DNA of 64,000 nt from an uncultured Candidatus Rokubacteria bacterium (GTDB lineage Bacteria; Methylomirabilota; Methylomirabilia; Rokubacteriales; DASRDR01). The notes beneath the pieces were generated by a model, which saw nothing but the letters and a program-made list of their open reading frames with translations, made no database searches and was not told where the DNA came from. The position numbers and the translations under genes were made by a program. Of this stretch, positions 42,327-52,018 are shown piece after piece; within the stretch, counting starts at the first letter, position 1, and every line of letters begins with the position of its first letter. The stretch spans positions 416,001 through 480,000 of the forward strand of contig CAWDVE010000016.1 in the NCBI GenBank assembly GCA_963805625.1, in the 5' to 3' direction.

Positions 42327-42716
42327 GTGACGATGGGCCTGATCCCCTCGAGCTTTCTCCCGCCCCGAGCCCTCTGGCCCGAGCGGGTCTACACCCTGCC
42401 CGAGCACGCGAGCTACCCGGCGCGTCTGAACTCGACCGAGGAGTTGATCGACCGTCACGTCGAGGCCGGCGGCGGGGACCGCGTGGCGATCCTCTACGAG
42501 GACCAGCAGATCACTTACCGCCAACTCCAGAGTTCCGTCAGCCGGCTCGGCTCGGCGCTCCGGGCACTGGGGATCGGGGAGGAGGATCGGGTGCTCCTGC
42601 GGGCTCCCTCGATCCCACCGGCGCTCGTTGCCAACTTCGCGGTCATCCGGATCGGCGGCGTGATCGTGCCGACGTCGCCGCGCCGTGTCCTCCGCGACCA
42701 GGCCGGGCGCGCCTGA
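42327..42716 (+). pseudogene. Internally deleted aryl/acyl-CoA ligase (benzoate/2-aminobenzoate-CoA ligase-like)
   Basis: N-terminal 118 aa of an ANL ligase (LNSTEELIDRHV, GDRVAI, TYRQL, EEDRVLL, IGGVIVPTSP) joined to a ligase-type C-terminus RRVLRDQAGRA; lacks the AMP-binding loop. Confidence 0.75.
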
Positions 42717-43579: not shown

Positions 43580-43722
43580 CCGATGGTCATGCGGTTCTCA
43601 GTGACAATTTCTGGCACCGACGGGGGCCTTTTCGCTCCTACCGGGCGCGCCTGAACCGTCTCCAGTCCGACAATGCGAGGAATGACGGCAGTTTAGTCAA
43701 GGCAATCCCTGTCGGACTATCG

Positions 43723-43738
43723 TGGCACTGGCCTTGCT
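43723..43738 (+). promoter_or_regulatory. Sigma-54 -24/-12 promoter
   Basis: TGGCAC-TGGCC-TTGCT, an exact match to TGGCAC-N5-TTGCW, in a relatively AT-rich intergenic region. Confidence 0.8.
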
Positions 43739-43751
43739 ATTCCCTCCTACC

Positions 43752-45038
43752 ATGCAACAGTACGAGATTCGATCGAGTGGAGGTCTGGTAAACGGCGTGG
43801 AGGAAGCTCCGCCACCGCCAGTTCCGGAGGCACGCCGCGGCCTGCTCGGCGAGATCCTGATCCGCGAGGGCCTGATCGACGAGGGCCAGCTGTCGACGGC
43901 CCTGATGGTGCAGCGAGAGACCGAGCCCACGACTCCGCTGGGCCAGATCCTGGTGCGCCAGGGCGCGATCACCCAGCGCCAGCTCAACAGCGTTCTCGAC
44001 CGGTACCGCAAGAAGTACCGGCTGGGCGACATCCTCGTCGAGACCGAGACCATCACCGAGCACCAGCTTCAGATCGCGCTGGATCATCAGAAGAAGACGG
44101 GGCTCCGGCTCGGCGACTCCCTCCTCCAGCTCAACTTCGTGACGGAGGAGGAAGTCAACCAGGCGCTCTGCAAGCAGTTCGGGGTCACGTTCGTCGACCT
44201 GGACCGGCTGGTACTCGACAACAGCCTCGCGCTGGTGATCAACCGCGAGTATGCGGAGCGGCACCGCGTGATCCCGATCTCGAAGACCGATCGGGTGCTG
44301 GTGGTCGCCATGGACGACCCGTCGGACCTGGGCGTCGTGGCCGAGCTGGCGGGCGCCACCGGCTCGCGCGTCAACGTCGTGACGTCGACGCATGCTGCGT
44401 TCCGCCGTGCCTTCGCGCGCACCTATGGGGAGAGCGCCGAGGTCGGCCTCATCCGACGCGCCGAGCAGCTCGGGCGCGAGTACGAGATCCTCCGCGCCGA
44501 GCACGAAGCGAGCAAGGAGAAGTTCGCGGAGCTGCGGCGGGCGCACGAGGCCGTCCTGGCGGACCGCGAGGCGTCGACGCGGACGCTGGCCGAGCAGCGC
44601 ACGCGAAACGAGTGGAACGAGCAGGCCCTGACCGGCCTCCGGGAGGCCCACGCGGCGCTCCGGGCGGAATACGAGTCGACCCGGGCGACGCTCGAGAAGC
44701 TACGTCTCGAGTATGCGGAGAGCACCCGGATGCTCGGGGATCTGCAGGACGCCCACGAGGCGCTGACCACGGAGCAGGCGACGACCGCAGACCAGATGGC
44801 GGAGCGGCAGGCGCGAAACGAGTGGAACCTGCGGGTCCTCGAGGAGCTGCGGGCCGCCCAGCAGACGCTCCGAGCCGGACACGAGAGTCTTCGGAGCGAG
44901 CTCGCGCTCGCCCAGGACCGCGGTGCCGAGGCTGAGGCGCGCCTGGCGGAGCTTCGAGCGTCGCACGAGACACTCCTGACGGATCACGCGACGATCGTGC
45001 GGGAGATCGAGGCGGTCACGGACCGCCTGAAAGGCTGA
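43752..45038 (+). CDS. 4x MshEN-motif + T2SSE_N (GspE/PilB N-terminal) + coiled-coil protein, no ATPase (paralogue A)
   Basis: LLGEILIREGLI, PLGQILVRQGAI, RLGDILVETETI, RLGDSLLQLNFV; AERHRVIPI, VAMDDP; heptad tail; start ATG 43752 or GTG 43797. Confidence 0.85.
   Translation: MQQYEIRSSGGLVNGVEEAPPPPVPEARRGLLGEILIREGLIDEGQLSTALMVQRETEPTTPLGQILVRQGAITQRQLNSVLDRYRKKYRLGDILVETETITEHQLQIALDHQKKTGLRLGDSLLQLNFVTEEEVNQALCKQFGVTFVDLDRLVLDNSLALVINREYAERHRVIPISKTDRVLVVAMDDPSDLGVVAELAGATGSRVNVVTSTHAAFRRAFARTYGESAEVGLIRRAEQLGREYEILRAEHEASKEKFAELRRAHEAVLADREASTRTLAEQRTRNEWNEQALTGLREAHAALRAEYESTRATLEKLRLEYAESTRMLGDLQDAHEALTTEQATTADQMAERQARNEWNLRVLEELRAAQQTLRAGHESLRSELALAQDRGAEAEARLAELRASHETLLTDHATIVREIEAVTDRLKG
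44529..44978 (+). repeat. Five 35-aa (105-nt) periodic coiled-coil units
   Basis: xLxxAHxxL-like motifs begin at 44529, 44634, 44739, 44844 and 44949; RNEWN DNA 17-mer repeated at 44602 and 44812. Confidence 0.75.
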
Positions 45039-45049
45039 GGAGGCAGGAC

Positions 45050-46408
45050 ATGACGGCGGCGCACCTCAACGGAAGCTACGGCAACGGCCACGAGGCGGTC
45101 GCGCTGCCGCTGCTGGTCCAGCCGCATCGCGTCGCGTCGTCACCTCCCCGAACCCATCTCCTGGGCGAGCTGCTGCTCCGGGAGGGAATGGTCACGGAGG
45201 GACAGCTGACCAGCGCGCTCCGCGCGCAGGAGGCGAGCCTCGACGGCACCCCGGTCGGACAGCTTCTCGTGGAGCAGGGTGCCCTCTCCCCGGCCGATCT
45301 GGAGGCGGTGCTGCGCCGCTACCACAAGAAGTACCGGCTGGGCGACATCCTCGTCGAGACCAACGTGATCAGCGAGACGCAGCTCCAGCTCGGTGTCGAC
45401 CACCACCGACGCACCGGGCTCCGACTCGGCGATGCACTGCTCCAGCTGGGCTTTGTCAACGAGGAGATGCTCAAGCTGGCGCTGTGCACGCAGCTCGATG
45501 TCGTGTTCGTCGACCTCGATCGGTTCTCCATCGACCGCAGCCTCGCGTCGCTGGTCCCGAAGGCGTTCGCGCAGCAGCACCGGGTCCTCCCGGTCGCCCG
45601 GGTCGACGACGTCCTGACGGTGGCCTTGGCGGATCCGACGGACGGCTGGGTCGCGGAGAACCTCGAGGCGATGACTGCTTGCCAGGTGCGGCTGATCATG
45701 TCGACCGACGCCGCGTTCCAGCGGGCCTTCACCCGTGTGTACGGCGAGAACCCCGGAGTCGGTCTCGCCCGGCAGCACGAGCGACTCGAGCAGACTCACG
45801 CGGTTCTCACGCGCGAGTACGAGAAGGCGGCCCGGGCCCTGGGCGAGCTGCGTCAGTCGCACGAGGAGTTCCTCCGGGAGCAGGCCGATCTGCTCCGGAC
45901 GGCCGCCGAGCAGGCTGGCCAGCAGACGGAGCAGGAGCGCCGGCTCGCCGAGCTCCAGGCAGCGAACGCGACGCTTCGCGAGGAGCACGAAGCCCGGGGG
46001 CGGGCGCATGCGGATCTGTCGCGCGCGCAGGCGGAGACACTCGAGAGCCTCACCACGATCCGGCGCGAGCACGGGCGGCTGCTCGGCGAGCACCACGACC
46101 TGGGGCGCCAGCTCGTCGAGGAGCGGGAGCGAGGCGGCGAGCTGGCTCGGCGCCTGGTCGAGCTGGAAGCCGCGCACATCGTGGGTCGGCGGGAGCTCGA
46201 CGAACGCCTGACGGCGCTCACGGCGCTGGACGCGGCCTACGCGGAGACCACTCACGCGCTGGCCGGTCTCCGCGCGGAGCACGAGACCCTGCGAGGCGAG
46301 TACGAGCGGGTCTCCCGCGAGCTTGGCGAGCGGTGCCACGCCGCCGAGGGACGCCAGCAGCTGGCGATCCAGCAGCTCGAGACACTGCTCACGCGCCTCC
46401 GGCAGTGA
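45050..46408 (+). CDS. 4x MshEN-motif + T2SSE_N + coiled-coil protein, no ATPase (paralogue B)
   Basis: GGAGG SD; LLGELLLREGMV, PVGQLLVEQGAL, RLGDILVETNVI, RLGDALLQLGFV; AQQHRVLPV, VALADP; heptad tail. Confidence 0.88.
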   Translation: MTAAHLNGSYGNGHEAVALPLLVQPHRVASSPPRTHLLGELLLREGMVTEGQLTSALRAQEASLDGTPVGQLLVEQGALSPADLEAVLRRYHKKYRLGDILVETNVISETQLQLGVDHHRRTGLRLGDALLQLGFVNEEMLKLALCTQLDVVFVDLDRFSIDRSLASLVPKAFAQQHRVLPVARVDDVLTVALADPTDGWVAENLEAMTACQVRLIMSTDAAFQRAFTRVYGENPGVGLARQHERLEQTHAVLTREYEKAARALGELRQSHEEFLREQADLLRTAAEQAGQQTEQERRLAELQAANATLREEHEARGRAHADLSRAQAETLESLTTIRREHGRLLGEHHDLGRQLVEERERGGELARRLVELEAAHIVGRRELDERLTALTALDAAYAETTHALAGLRAEHETLRGEYERVSRELGERCHAAEGRQQLAIQQLETLLTRLRQ

Positions 46409-51670: not shown

Positions 51671-52018
51671 GTGCAGATCGGCATGATCGGGCTCGGCCGC
51701 AACGGGATCGAGTACGGGCCCATGCAGGCCTATGCCGAGGGCTTCGACATCCTGCTGAACGCGCGGTCGATGGACTTGCCGGAGCAGCCCCGCGACGATC
51801 TCTCGCTCCGCGACATCGCCGAGGTCTGGCGGCGGGGGAGCGTCGTCAGCTCCTGGCTCCTGGACCTCACGGCGGAGGCCCTCGTGGTCCCCGCGGACGT
51901 GCTCTCGGCCTCGCTCTTCGTCCGCTTCCGCTCGCGGCCGGACCACTCCTTCGAGCGGGTCCTGTCCGCGATGCGGCACAAGTTCGGCGGCCACGTCGAG
52001 CGGCCGTCGGGAGGGTAG
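51671..52018 (+). pseudogene. Internally deleted 6-phosphogluconate dehydrogenase remnant
   Basis: [10 protein letters not shown] fused directly to NGIEYG; retains [12 protein letters not shown] and MRHKFGGH; 115 aa versus 299 aa for the intact gnd. Confidence 0.85.

Follow-up and report, generated by a model that had tools for sequence, protein, structure and literature searches.

Within the 64,000-nucleotide (nt) stretch analysed here (positions 416,001 to 480,000 of contig CAWDVE010000016.1, from an uncultured Candidatus Rokubacteria bacterium; hereafter the window), two adjacent genes, named A and B, encode proteins in which four motifs of the MshE type are joined to a long coiled coil and the ATPase is absent. 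A/B-type proteins constitute a real and undescribed family. We put the probability at about 50% that A and B are receptors for cyclic di-GMP (c-di-GMP) which, as dimeric scaffolds or adaptors, regulate the extension and retraction of type IVa pili in trans, beside a PilB that is itself predicted to be blind to c-di-GMP. The genome is referred to as G000, its family as f1, and the other large family as f2. According to database names and record titles, the close relatives are Ca. Rokubacteria or Methylomirabilota.

A and B combine an MshEN head with a long coiled-coil tail

The features of the A/B locus, in window positions, are the following.

43723..43738, plus strand: sigma-54 (-24/-12) consensus TGGCAC-N5-TTGCT (consensus match)
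43752..45038, plus strand: gene A, 428 amino acids (aa) from ATG, (MshEN_N)2 - N1 - coiled coil (sequence, Pfam, orthologues, model)
43842..44006, plus strand: first MshEN_N module of A, motifs 1-2 LLG/PLG, motif 2 ending in Tyr, predicted weaker site (motifs, NF053729, model)
44009..44045, plus strand: 37-nt block identical to 45325-45361 (exact match)
44019..44177, plus strand: second MshEN_N module of A, motifs 3-4 RLG..RLG with a spacer of 5 aa and Gln at the end of each, the best c-di-GMP site by prediction (motifs, NF053729, Foldseek)
44178..44438, plus strand: MshEN_C/N1 subdomain of A, PF05157, A143-229 (E 2.5e-18; alpha/beta fold in model)
44460..45035, plus strand: coiled coil of A, 192 aa, 27 unbroken heptads, ending in a basic amphipathic end-helix (periodicity, model)
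45039..45049, plus strand: A-B spacer, 11 nt, with ribosome-binding site GGAGG (sequence)
45050..46408, plus strand: gene B, 452 aa, architecture as gene A (sequence, Pfam, orthologues)
45158..45322, plus strand: first MshEN_N module of B, LLG/PVG, motif 2 ending in Tyr (motifs, NF053729)
45335..45493, plus strand: second MshEN_N module of B, RLG..RLG, motif 3 with L21V and Q24H, predicted weaker than in A (motifs, NF053729, Wang 2016 Suppl. Table 1)
45497..45748, plus strand: MshEN_C/N1 subdomain of B, PF05157, B150-233 (E 3.9e-19)
45776..46405, plus strand: coiled coil of B, 210 aa, 30 heptads, register as in A, ending in the conserved end-helix (periodicity)

Each protein begins with a short disordered segment, followed by four 24-aa MshE-type motifs (residues 31-54, 62-85, 90-113 and 119-142 of A; 37-60, 68-91, 96-119 and 125-148 of B), the N1/MshEN_C subdomain and a helical tail. 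The first pair of motifs reads LLG plus PLG (A) or PVG (B) and has a spacer of 7 aa; motif 2 ends in Tyr, not Gln, in A, B and all their orthologues. The second pair, RLG..RLG, shows in both proteins the tandem 24-aa arrangement with a 5-aa spacer that marks the MshEN family. Departures from the MshEN consensus in motifs 3 and 4 are confined to position 10 (both motifs of A and motif 3 of B), position 17 (Val in motif 4 of A) and positions 21 and 24 of motif 3 of B, which ends V..H rather than L..Q (Val for Leu21, His for Gln24). The NCBIfam model NF053729 (MshE-type c-di-GMP motif) recognised two stretches per protein (112.7 and 89.6 bits; cut-off 38).

A and B are not assembly ATPases of the PilB/GspE/MshE type: neither PF00437 nor the Walker A pattern GxxxxGK[ST] was found in either protein, and the TIGR02538 scores of 77 and 67 bits fall far short of the cut-off, 676. 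Membrane segments are also lacking, since the maximal 19-residue hydropathy is only 1.31 and 1.17. An AlphaFold2 model of A, based on a 77-sequence alignment (predicted local distance difference test 87.3, predicted template modelling score 0.52), is composed of eight short helices together with an alpha/beta domain and a single helix of 199 residues. Its top structural match in Foldseek is MshE with c-di-GMP (5HTL; root-mean-square deviation 1.7 A over 137 columns, TM(target) 0.89). The order of a four-helix MshEN_N bundle followed by an alpha/beta MshEN_C was thus seen in the A model by its match to 5HTL, and PF05157 was found in both proteins. By every feature of the sequences that can be tested, A and B belong to the MshEN domain family. 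The first-pass annotation, made from the letters of the window and their open reading frames, had described four MshEN-type motifs and an N1 in each protein, no Walker A or membrane segment, and a coiled coil of about 190-210 aa, all of which agrees with these results.

In the tails a period of 3.5 residues dominates, with a power of 17.7 (A) and 22.2 (B) against 2.0 and 5.2 for the next best. Histidines are concentrated in one heptad position (7/7 in A, 9/12 in B), and the tails show an internal repeat of 35/70 aa. A coiled coil rises 0.15 nm per residue, which makes the A and B rods about 28-31 nm long. Such a tail very probably forms a parallel two-stranded coiled coil that holds two heads side by side, in A/A, B/B or A/B combinations. 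The basic amphipathic end-helix occurs in 36 of 42 f1 tails and in 22 of 6,676 proteins of the genome, by a pattern drawn from these same sequences. Tails in f1 range from 85 to 586 aa. The tail of one 804-aa member (L024:6882-9296) is built almost perfectly from 35/70-aa units in tandem, and gene A of G003 contains a 45-aa internal duplication. The sequences suggest that rod length varies in whole five-heptad steps.

A and B are intact genes under purifying selection

This genome has the pair, as do 11 of 14 other genomes of the genus, and length and stop are alike in the 11 relatives. Heads of A are 95-99% identical in 10 of these 11, and tails change faster. For six orthologue pairs, the ratio of nonsynonymous to synonymous substitution rates (dN/dS) of A was 0.04-0.08 in the head and 0.21-0.49 in the tail; for B the values were 0.11-0.18 and 0.16-0.29. 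A search of 251 genomes of the phylum (E<=1e-30) matched the four-motif head in 71 of them: 19 of 20 from f1, 49 of 159 from f2 and two elsewhere. No Walker A motif occurred among the 45 head matches of f1 and this genome, 42 of which carry a coiled-coil tail; the remaining three are either short or apparently frameshifted. When longer forms were sought, a single protein without T2SSE domain came up, which by the method's own note is weak evidence. A and B are working genes and not ATPase fragments.

A third paralogue, C (~397 aa; G000:C10:1680731-1681924, minus strand; L021:8732-9925), stands alone on another contig, and its position varies among relatives. Its motifs start FLG/LLG/LLG/PLG, without Arg, and are followed by a Pro-rich linker, a shorter coil and an end-helix like that of A and B; no sigma-54 site was found upstream of it. 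Together with single-copy members in other genera, this stand-alone paralogue leaves an obligate A/B hetero-oligomer unsupported. Some members have a Ser/Thr-kinase-like N-terminus, followed by the four-motif head and then by a short coiled coil (L023:5655-7454, P0129, P0147, P0190 and P0195); Pfam Pkinase matched P0147, P0190 and P0195 and was not detected in P0129.

The heads found in f2 belong either to stand-alone PilB/GspE-type ATPases outside pilus operons or to an ATPase-less form with a 40-aa tail. These orphan four-motif ATPases (L033, L035, L038, L186-L203 and L094), 9/27 of which have a sigma-54 site within 500 nt, share 41-56% identity with the A head; none was present among the 45 head matches mentioned above, where the coiled-coil form occurs instead. 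The ATPase-less form, with its conserved 40-aa tail (L036:8572-9483, L085, L170-L182, L204 and L205), makes a clade of its own beside the f2 orphan ATPases. In a careful tree of 54 of 83 locus rows, from which 29 redundant, partial or frameshifted rows had been dropped, 23 of 24 f1 rows formed one clade (100/97) with no ATPase inside it, and the short-tailed f2 form grouped with the f2 ATPases (100/99). A quick tree of 150 rows, made after removal of 12 near-duplicate A/B rows, agreed, with a 60-row clade (Shimodaira-Hasegawa-like approximate likelihood ratio test 99) and two coiled-coil lineages outside it. Both trees were midpoint-rooted, and it is on this footing that we infer the direction of change. 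Since PilB/GspE ATPases are far more widespread, the simplest reading of the trees would be that the ATPase was lost twice. A search across all species genomes gave mostly ordinary PilBs among the matches listed, the range outside the phylum being poorly sampled, and an Atlas search returned only MshEN clusters named 'hypothetical' (top 0.91), including clusters from Gaiellales and Hydrogenedentota.

Predicted binding of c-di-GMP

In MshE of Vibrio cholerae, Gly3 of the motif and Leu2, Leu17 and Leu21 matter most: binding by the G11L mutant was not detectable, G40I caused a 72-fold loss, L29V a 4-fold loss and Gln-to-Ala a loss of ~10-fold (Wang 2016, PMC5013675). The guanine-binding Gly3 and Leu2 were found in motifs 3 and 4 of 12/12 A and 12/12 B orthologues. 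Arg1, Leu2, Gly3 and Gln24 are kept in both motifs of all 12 A orthologues and Leu21 in 11-12 of them, and position 17 of motif 4 is mostly Val. Judging from these residues, the RLG..RLG module, best preserved in A, is likely to bind c-di-GMP as MshE does.

The first-pass annotation had considered the lack of a conserved Gly in motif 3 of both proteins and motif 4 of A a possible bar to binding. The residue in question is position 10 (Glu in motif 3 and Asn in motif 4 of A), and not the guanine-binding Gly3, so that this objection falls. The excerpts of PMC5013675 term the position-10 Gly structural and do not have it in the table of MshE mutants; motif 1 of NfrB has Gln in its place (PMC5013675 Suppl. 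Fig. 3c), and NfrB binds c-di-GMP at ~1.0 uM (PMC8669469). On account of Val21 and His24 in motif 3, the site of B should be weaker than that of A. The LLG/PLG module is still in play because the GSPII-B domain of Thermus PilF, where Arg1 can be Lys or Leu, is a 6 nM binder (PMC11731258); the terminal Tyr of motif 2 argues against this module. This genome encodes seven GGDEF domains, and at least one was found in all 21 family genomes.

Genomic links to the type IVa pilus

A complete cluster of type IVa pilus genes and a type II secretion system (T2SS), including PilM and GspL, are encoded in the genome, on contigs other than that of the window. For PilB, 55 genomes had a match, and the comparison covered the 30 best of these loci. 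Gly3 of motif 1 of the pilus-operon PilB is replaced by Leu in 16/16 f1 genomes and in 0/14 others of the order, and the Gly of motif 2 is kept in 13 of the 14 outside f1 (Ser in G022) and in 3 of the 16 f1 genomes. Because G11L abolishes binding by MshE, the f1 PilB is predicted, by this single-residue rule, to have lost c-di-GMP binding.

A GGDEF cyclase gene lies directly after pilD in 9/9 f1 genomes whose examined DNA spans the site (G000, G001, G004, G005, G008, G009, G013 and G014, plus G019/G020 counted as one line of other genera) and in 0/7 f2 clusters; for G003 a GGDEF survey also placed such a gene next to pilD. In the pilus cluster of this genome (G000:C17:390218-401893, L344), genes for a HEAT-repeat protein, an HD-GYP-type protein, the GGDEF cyclase, whose N-terminus has hydrophobic segments, and a hybrid kinase of 921 aa that contains a long repeat of the EVVREVPV type surround pilD and the minor pilin genes. 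At another place on the same contig (G000:C17:235096-236115), a 339-aa protein with an N-terminal actin-like phosphate-1 motif is encoded, which may be MreB/MamK-like. A separate operon (G000:C19:551659-555562; L345:7660-11563), preceded by a sigma-54-type site, encodes REC, a PilB paralogue with an intact MshEN and no Walker A, PilT and PilU. By its sequence this Walker-A-less PilB is a second candidate for a c-di-GMP receptor that acts on pili in trans. Inspection by eye shows sigma-54-type sites ahead of pilA as well as of this accessory PilT operon.

Two genomes have lost the pair. In G004 (95% complete) it is cleanly missing between its usual neighbours, and G008 (92% complete) retains a promoterless 169-aa remnant. 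Seven pilus-regulatory genes that G002, G003 and G009 all possess are missing in both: those of the REC - Walker-A-less PilB - PilT - PilU operon, absent from its usual place, and, within the pilus cluster, those for the HEAT-repeat protein, the HD-GYP-type protein and the hybrid kinase; G004 also lacks pilS/pilR. As a control we took genes of five other stretches that are common to G002, G003 and G009 (30 + 11 + 14 + 9 + 18 = 82 genes, counted by hand from BLAST coverage). One of them was missing in both G004 and G008, the acyl-CoA-ligase-like gene beside the pair, which is already truncated in this genome. T2SS genes remain in both genomes. So do the core pilus genes, and the role of the pair would therefore be modulatory. 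Frameshifts in pilus genes of G008 and G004 were not used as a sign of decay, since T2SS genes and G014 are frameshifted too. A link to pili, which had earlier been only guessed, now has genomic support from the change in PilB, the cyclase gene after pilD and the co-loss.

Comparison with known systems

Besides the features mentioned, MshE (5HTL, PMC5013675) has tandem 24-aa motifs with a 5-aa spacer followed by N1/MshEN_C, as A and B do; sequence identity is 34%, and the model superposes at 1.7 A. Unlike A and B, with their two modules, absent ATPase and tail of 27-30 heptads, MshE has one module, a C-terminal ATPase and a place in a pilus operon. The best sequence match among solved structures is Thermus thermophilus PilF (GSPII-B/GSPII-C, PMC11731258; 8PDK, 6F8L), which also has several motifs before one N1 (three in GSPII-C) and tolerates residues other than Arg at position 1. 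PilF differs in being a hexameric ATPase that contains three complete GSPII domains, whereas A and B have four motifs, a single N1 and a coiled coil. The orphan four-motif PilB/GspE ATPases, undescribed and found in Rokubacteriales and one Acidobacteriota genome, share with A and B the head and the stand-alone genes, but have kept the ATPase.

Two other systems are alike in operation and not in descent. FimX/FimW of Pseudomonas and Xanthomonas work in the way that we propose for A and B: FimX acts in trans on PilB (PMC11656802), and the PilBs of P. aeruginosa and Xanthomonas are listed as non-binders (PMC5013675 Suppl. Table 3), so that a separate c-di-GMP receptor serves a non-binding motor. 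FimX is not a homologue, for it has a REC-PAS-GGDEF-EAL architecture and no such Pfam domain occurs in A or B; moreover, its contact with PilB has been demonstrated, whereas the counterpart for A and B consists of genomic hints only. FrzS and AglZ of Myxococcus xanthus are paralogues that, by analogy, resemble A and B in joining a signalling-type head to a long C-terminal coiled coil, an extended form of which was found in A and B; the coiled coil of FrzS suffices for polar targeting, and FrzS sets a pilus activator at the pole (PMC9811614). Their head is a pseudo-receiver, in contrast to A and B, which show no Response_reg match and no homology. MglA, CheA, CheW and chemoreceptor motifs were not found in the genome by a simple pattern search, which is a weak test. 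By analogy, the roles of FimX and FrzS offer the best reading of A and B, as a trans-acting c-di-GMP receptor or scaffold for pilus dynamics.

ATPase-less MshEN proteins are known: one of them, P. aeruginosa PA3740, is a c-di-GMP binder with a link to swarming (PMC5013675 Suppl. Table 4). PA3740 and the cyanobacterial (MshEN_N)2 proteins differ from A and B in their domain order, and no long coiled coil is listed for them in the excerpt. No MshEN-coiled-coil entry occurs in that paper's list of architectures (Suppl. Table 4), as excerpted, and neither such a protein nor the A/B genes were found described in the full-text literature searched, most subscription papers being outside its reach. 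The first-pass statement that no system of this architecture had been described held within that literature.

A model for the function of A and B

The model starts from intact, selected genes whose products join an MshEN fold to a heptad tail and whose closest ATPase-bearing kin are the stand-alone four-motif PilB/GspE proteins. A and B would dimerise via their tails, with two heads at one end of the rod and the conserved end-helix at the other, and the RLG..RLG module would take up c-di-GMP made in part by the cyclase of the pilus cluster. The pathway in which they act is probably that of the type IVa pilus. If so, the chances are about even that the end-helix and rod anchor the protein, presumably at the pole, and that ligand-loaded heads recruit or release motor components through their N1/MshEN surfaces. 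These components could be PilB, the accessory PilT/PilU pair with the Walker-A-less PilB, or PilZ-type adaptors. Control of the pair by sigma-54 would match that of pilA and the accessory PilT operon.

More tentatively, and with the odds somewhat against it, the c-di-GMP switch may have been split off the motor in this one family: PilB would have lost its binding Gly, a cyclase and a phosphodiesterase would have entered the pilus cluster, and an ATPase-free head of an accessory PilB, placed on a 30-nm A/B rod, would have become a dedicated positional regulator, passing the signal on to the motors for extension and retraction. This would be a third solution beside binding of the MshE type and FimX/PilZ, and a model for recurring MshEN-coiled-coil scaffolds. 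The main value of A and B lies in this apparent transfer, by which copies of the pilus motor's head that lack the motor would have taken over its c-di-GMP sensing. How c-di-GMP at the N-terminus of PilB affects pilus assembly is poorly understood (PMC11656802), because sensor and motor share one protein. Here evolution would have separated the two, leaving a natural, soluble, motor-free head with selected surfaces next to a matching PilB that is predicted to be ligand-blind, and the binding partners of A and B would reveal which MshEN/N1 surfaces carry the signal. The pair would also be a first hint of the control of surface motility in Rokubacteria, an uncultured soil lineage. Should the link to pili fail, an undescribed family of c-di-GMP receptors would still stand.

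Weighing the alternatives

Several explanations compete with a role in pilus control. A and B might be a stator decoy, which we think unlikely. Their N1 is intact and under strong selection (dN/dS of the A head 0.04-0.08), T2SS ATPases bind EpsL/XpsL through the N1 domain (PMC6325625), and PilM and GspL are both encoded in the genome. The N1-PilM contact in type IVa systems is, however, deduced from T2SS homologues (PMC11656802) and not essential in Thermus (PMC6325625), a decoy would not need a 30-nm rod with a conserved end-helix, and T2SS genes are kept in both genomes that lost the pair. A complex prediction for the A head (28-232) with the PilM of this genome (score 0.02, mark 0.32) counts neither for nor against binding. 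There is likewise a small chance that the pair forms a c-di-GMP-responsive rod or filament unrelated to pili, serving cell shape, division, the nucleoid or a secretion scaffold, and that the correlations with pilus genes reflect shared ancestry. The plain unbroken coiled coil, its variable length across the family, the fusion of the same module to Ser/Thr kinases in some members and the distance from pilus genes would suit such a scaffold. Against it stand the co-loss with seven pilus-regulatory genes, compared with 1/82 controls, and the clean deletion of the pair, which would not be expected of a core shape or division protein.

Doubtful, too, is the idea that the heads bind c-di-GMP weakly or no longer and serve as protein-interaction modules only. 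The Tyr at the end of motif 2 in all orthologues, L21V and Q24H in motif 3 of B and the replaced position-10 Gly in motifs 3-4 of A speak for it, given the 4-fold and ~10-fold losses by L29V and Gln-to-Ala in MshE (PMC5013675); on the other side, G3 and L2, the most damaging to lose, are intact in motifs 3-4 of 24/24 orthologues, RLG is kept, and both NF053729 stretches lie far over the cut-off. We consider it improbable that A and B are a sink or buffer, a multivalent sponge induced via sigma-54 that lowers free c-di-GMP. A chain with up to two modules, and hence four per dimer, an inducible-type promoter of its own and three paralogues in the genome would serve this purpose, but N1, the rod and an end-helix conserved as described are all superfluous to it, and the second module is degenerate instead of optimised. 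The possibility that A and B are decayed or wrongly called pieces of longer ATPase genes, foreseen in the first-pass annotation as a refutation, can practically be dismissed. ATPase-bearing relatives do exist at 41-56% head identity and one genome has only the 169-aa remnant, but the genes are complete, with the same length and stop in 11 relatives, purifying selection acts on head and tail, the promoter is conserved, and neither the family matches (0/45 with Walker A) nor the one longer form, without T2SSE domain, point to an ATPase.

A number of observations weigh against our preferred reading of A and B as receptors in pilus control. The gene calls of the window, made with a codon model built for this analysis, include no pilin or PilB/PilT-type gene, as had been noted in the first pass, and the pair lacks the location in a pilus or T2SS operon that is a trait of PilB, GspE and MshE. 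Since the change in PilB, the insertion of the cyclase and the coiled-coil family itself all fall on one lineage, they count as a single event, not as independent tests. Motif 2 of PilB is also eroded in G022 and G023 (73% and 84% complete), from neighbouring families in which no coiled-coil member was found, and the PilB of this genome passes the NF053729 cut-off (44.9 against 38; f2 PilB 69.1). The Walker-A-less PilB, with its intact MshEN, is a rival receptor that could carry the signal alone; it tracks the erosion of PilB as well or better (15/20 in f1, 1/1 and 1/1 in the neighbouring families, 0/37 in f2). In G010, G014 and G017, which are incomplete or fragmented, a coiled-coil member is kept and the Walker-A-less PilB was not matched; G012 has the reverse pattern, in a genome that is also incomplete or fragmented and in which the whole locus of the pair was not found. 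The co-loss concerns two genomes that may be sisters (approximately unbiased test, p 0.126), though the best pilB+pilM tree does not place them as such; G008 is 7% contaminated, has many frameshifts and retains paralogue C, and the co-lost loci were examined after the first case had been noticed. [quoted passage not shown] Finally, c-di-GMP binding, localisation and phenotype of A and B are predictions from sequence alone.

Promoter, locus and neighbouring genes

Position 43723, given in the first-pass annotation as the start of the finding, is the sigma-54 site and not the start of a gene. The ATG of gene A lies 13 nt past the -12 element, which would give a near-leaderless message, and a later GTG start is possible. 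The consensus matched once in the window against 0.02 expected, and the site 5' of gene A is kept at 12/12 pair loci while the flanking sequence diverges; these counts support the sigma-54-type promoter that had been proposed. rpoN was detected in the genome by motif, and neither a sigma-70 promoter nor a terminator was found. Some 30-40 nt upstream of the sigma-54 site, inspection by eye showed a CACTTT(A/G)-like word in most of the 12 promoters (window 43683-43695, and the corresponding positions of L002-L012), possibly a protein-binding site.

The two genes, 11 nt apart and 42% identical at the protein level, are tandem paralogues as first described, and the pair, present at 12 loci including this genome, sits at a fixed site. 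In 11/11 relatives with the pair it lies between a short-chain dehydrogenase/reductase gene and a block of GNAT, fructose-bisphosphatase and pentose-phosphate genes, with gene B convergent with the GNAT gene. A functional tie to these flanking carbon-metabolism genes was rejected: synteny is kept, but the pair has its own promoter, the downstream genes are convergent and the pair is lost separately.

The 37-nt block to which the first-pass annotation had drawn attention is indeed identical in A and B, but has no special status: over 36 nt compared, A and B differ by a mean of 1.8 within genomes (11 genomes) and 2.0 between genomes, and concerted evolution was rejected on these grounds. The identity would be explained by protein constraint and codon bias, with at most short local gene conversion, which a synonymous change common to both copies in G014 and G011 allows. 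One database protein, P0104, consists of the start of B and the remainder of A joined at this block and is best read as a misassembly or a rare recombinant.

Two neighbouring genes are truncated. The acyl-CoA-ligase-like gene (window 42333-42716) encodes 127 aa, compared with 552 aa in several relatives, and is also truncated in G005 and G006; a second 6-phosphogluconate-dehydrogenase-like gene (window 51671-52018) encodes 115 aa, compared with ~327 aa in relatives.

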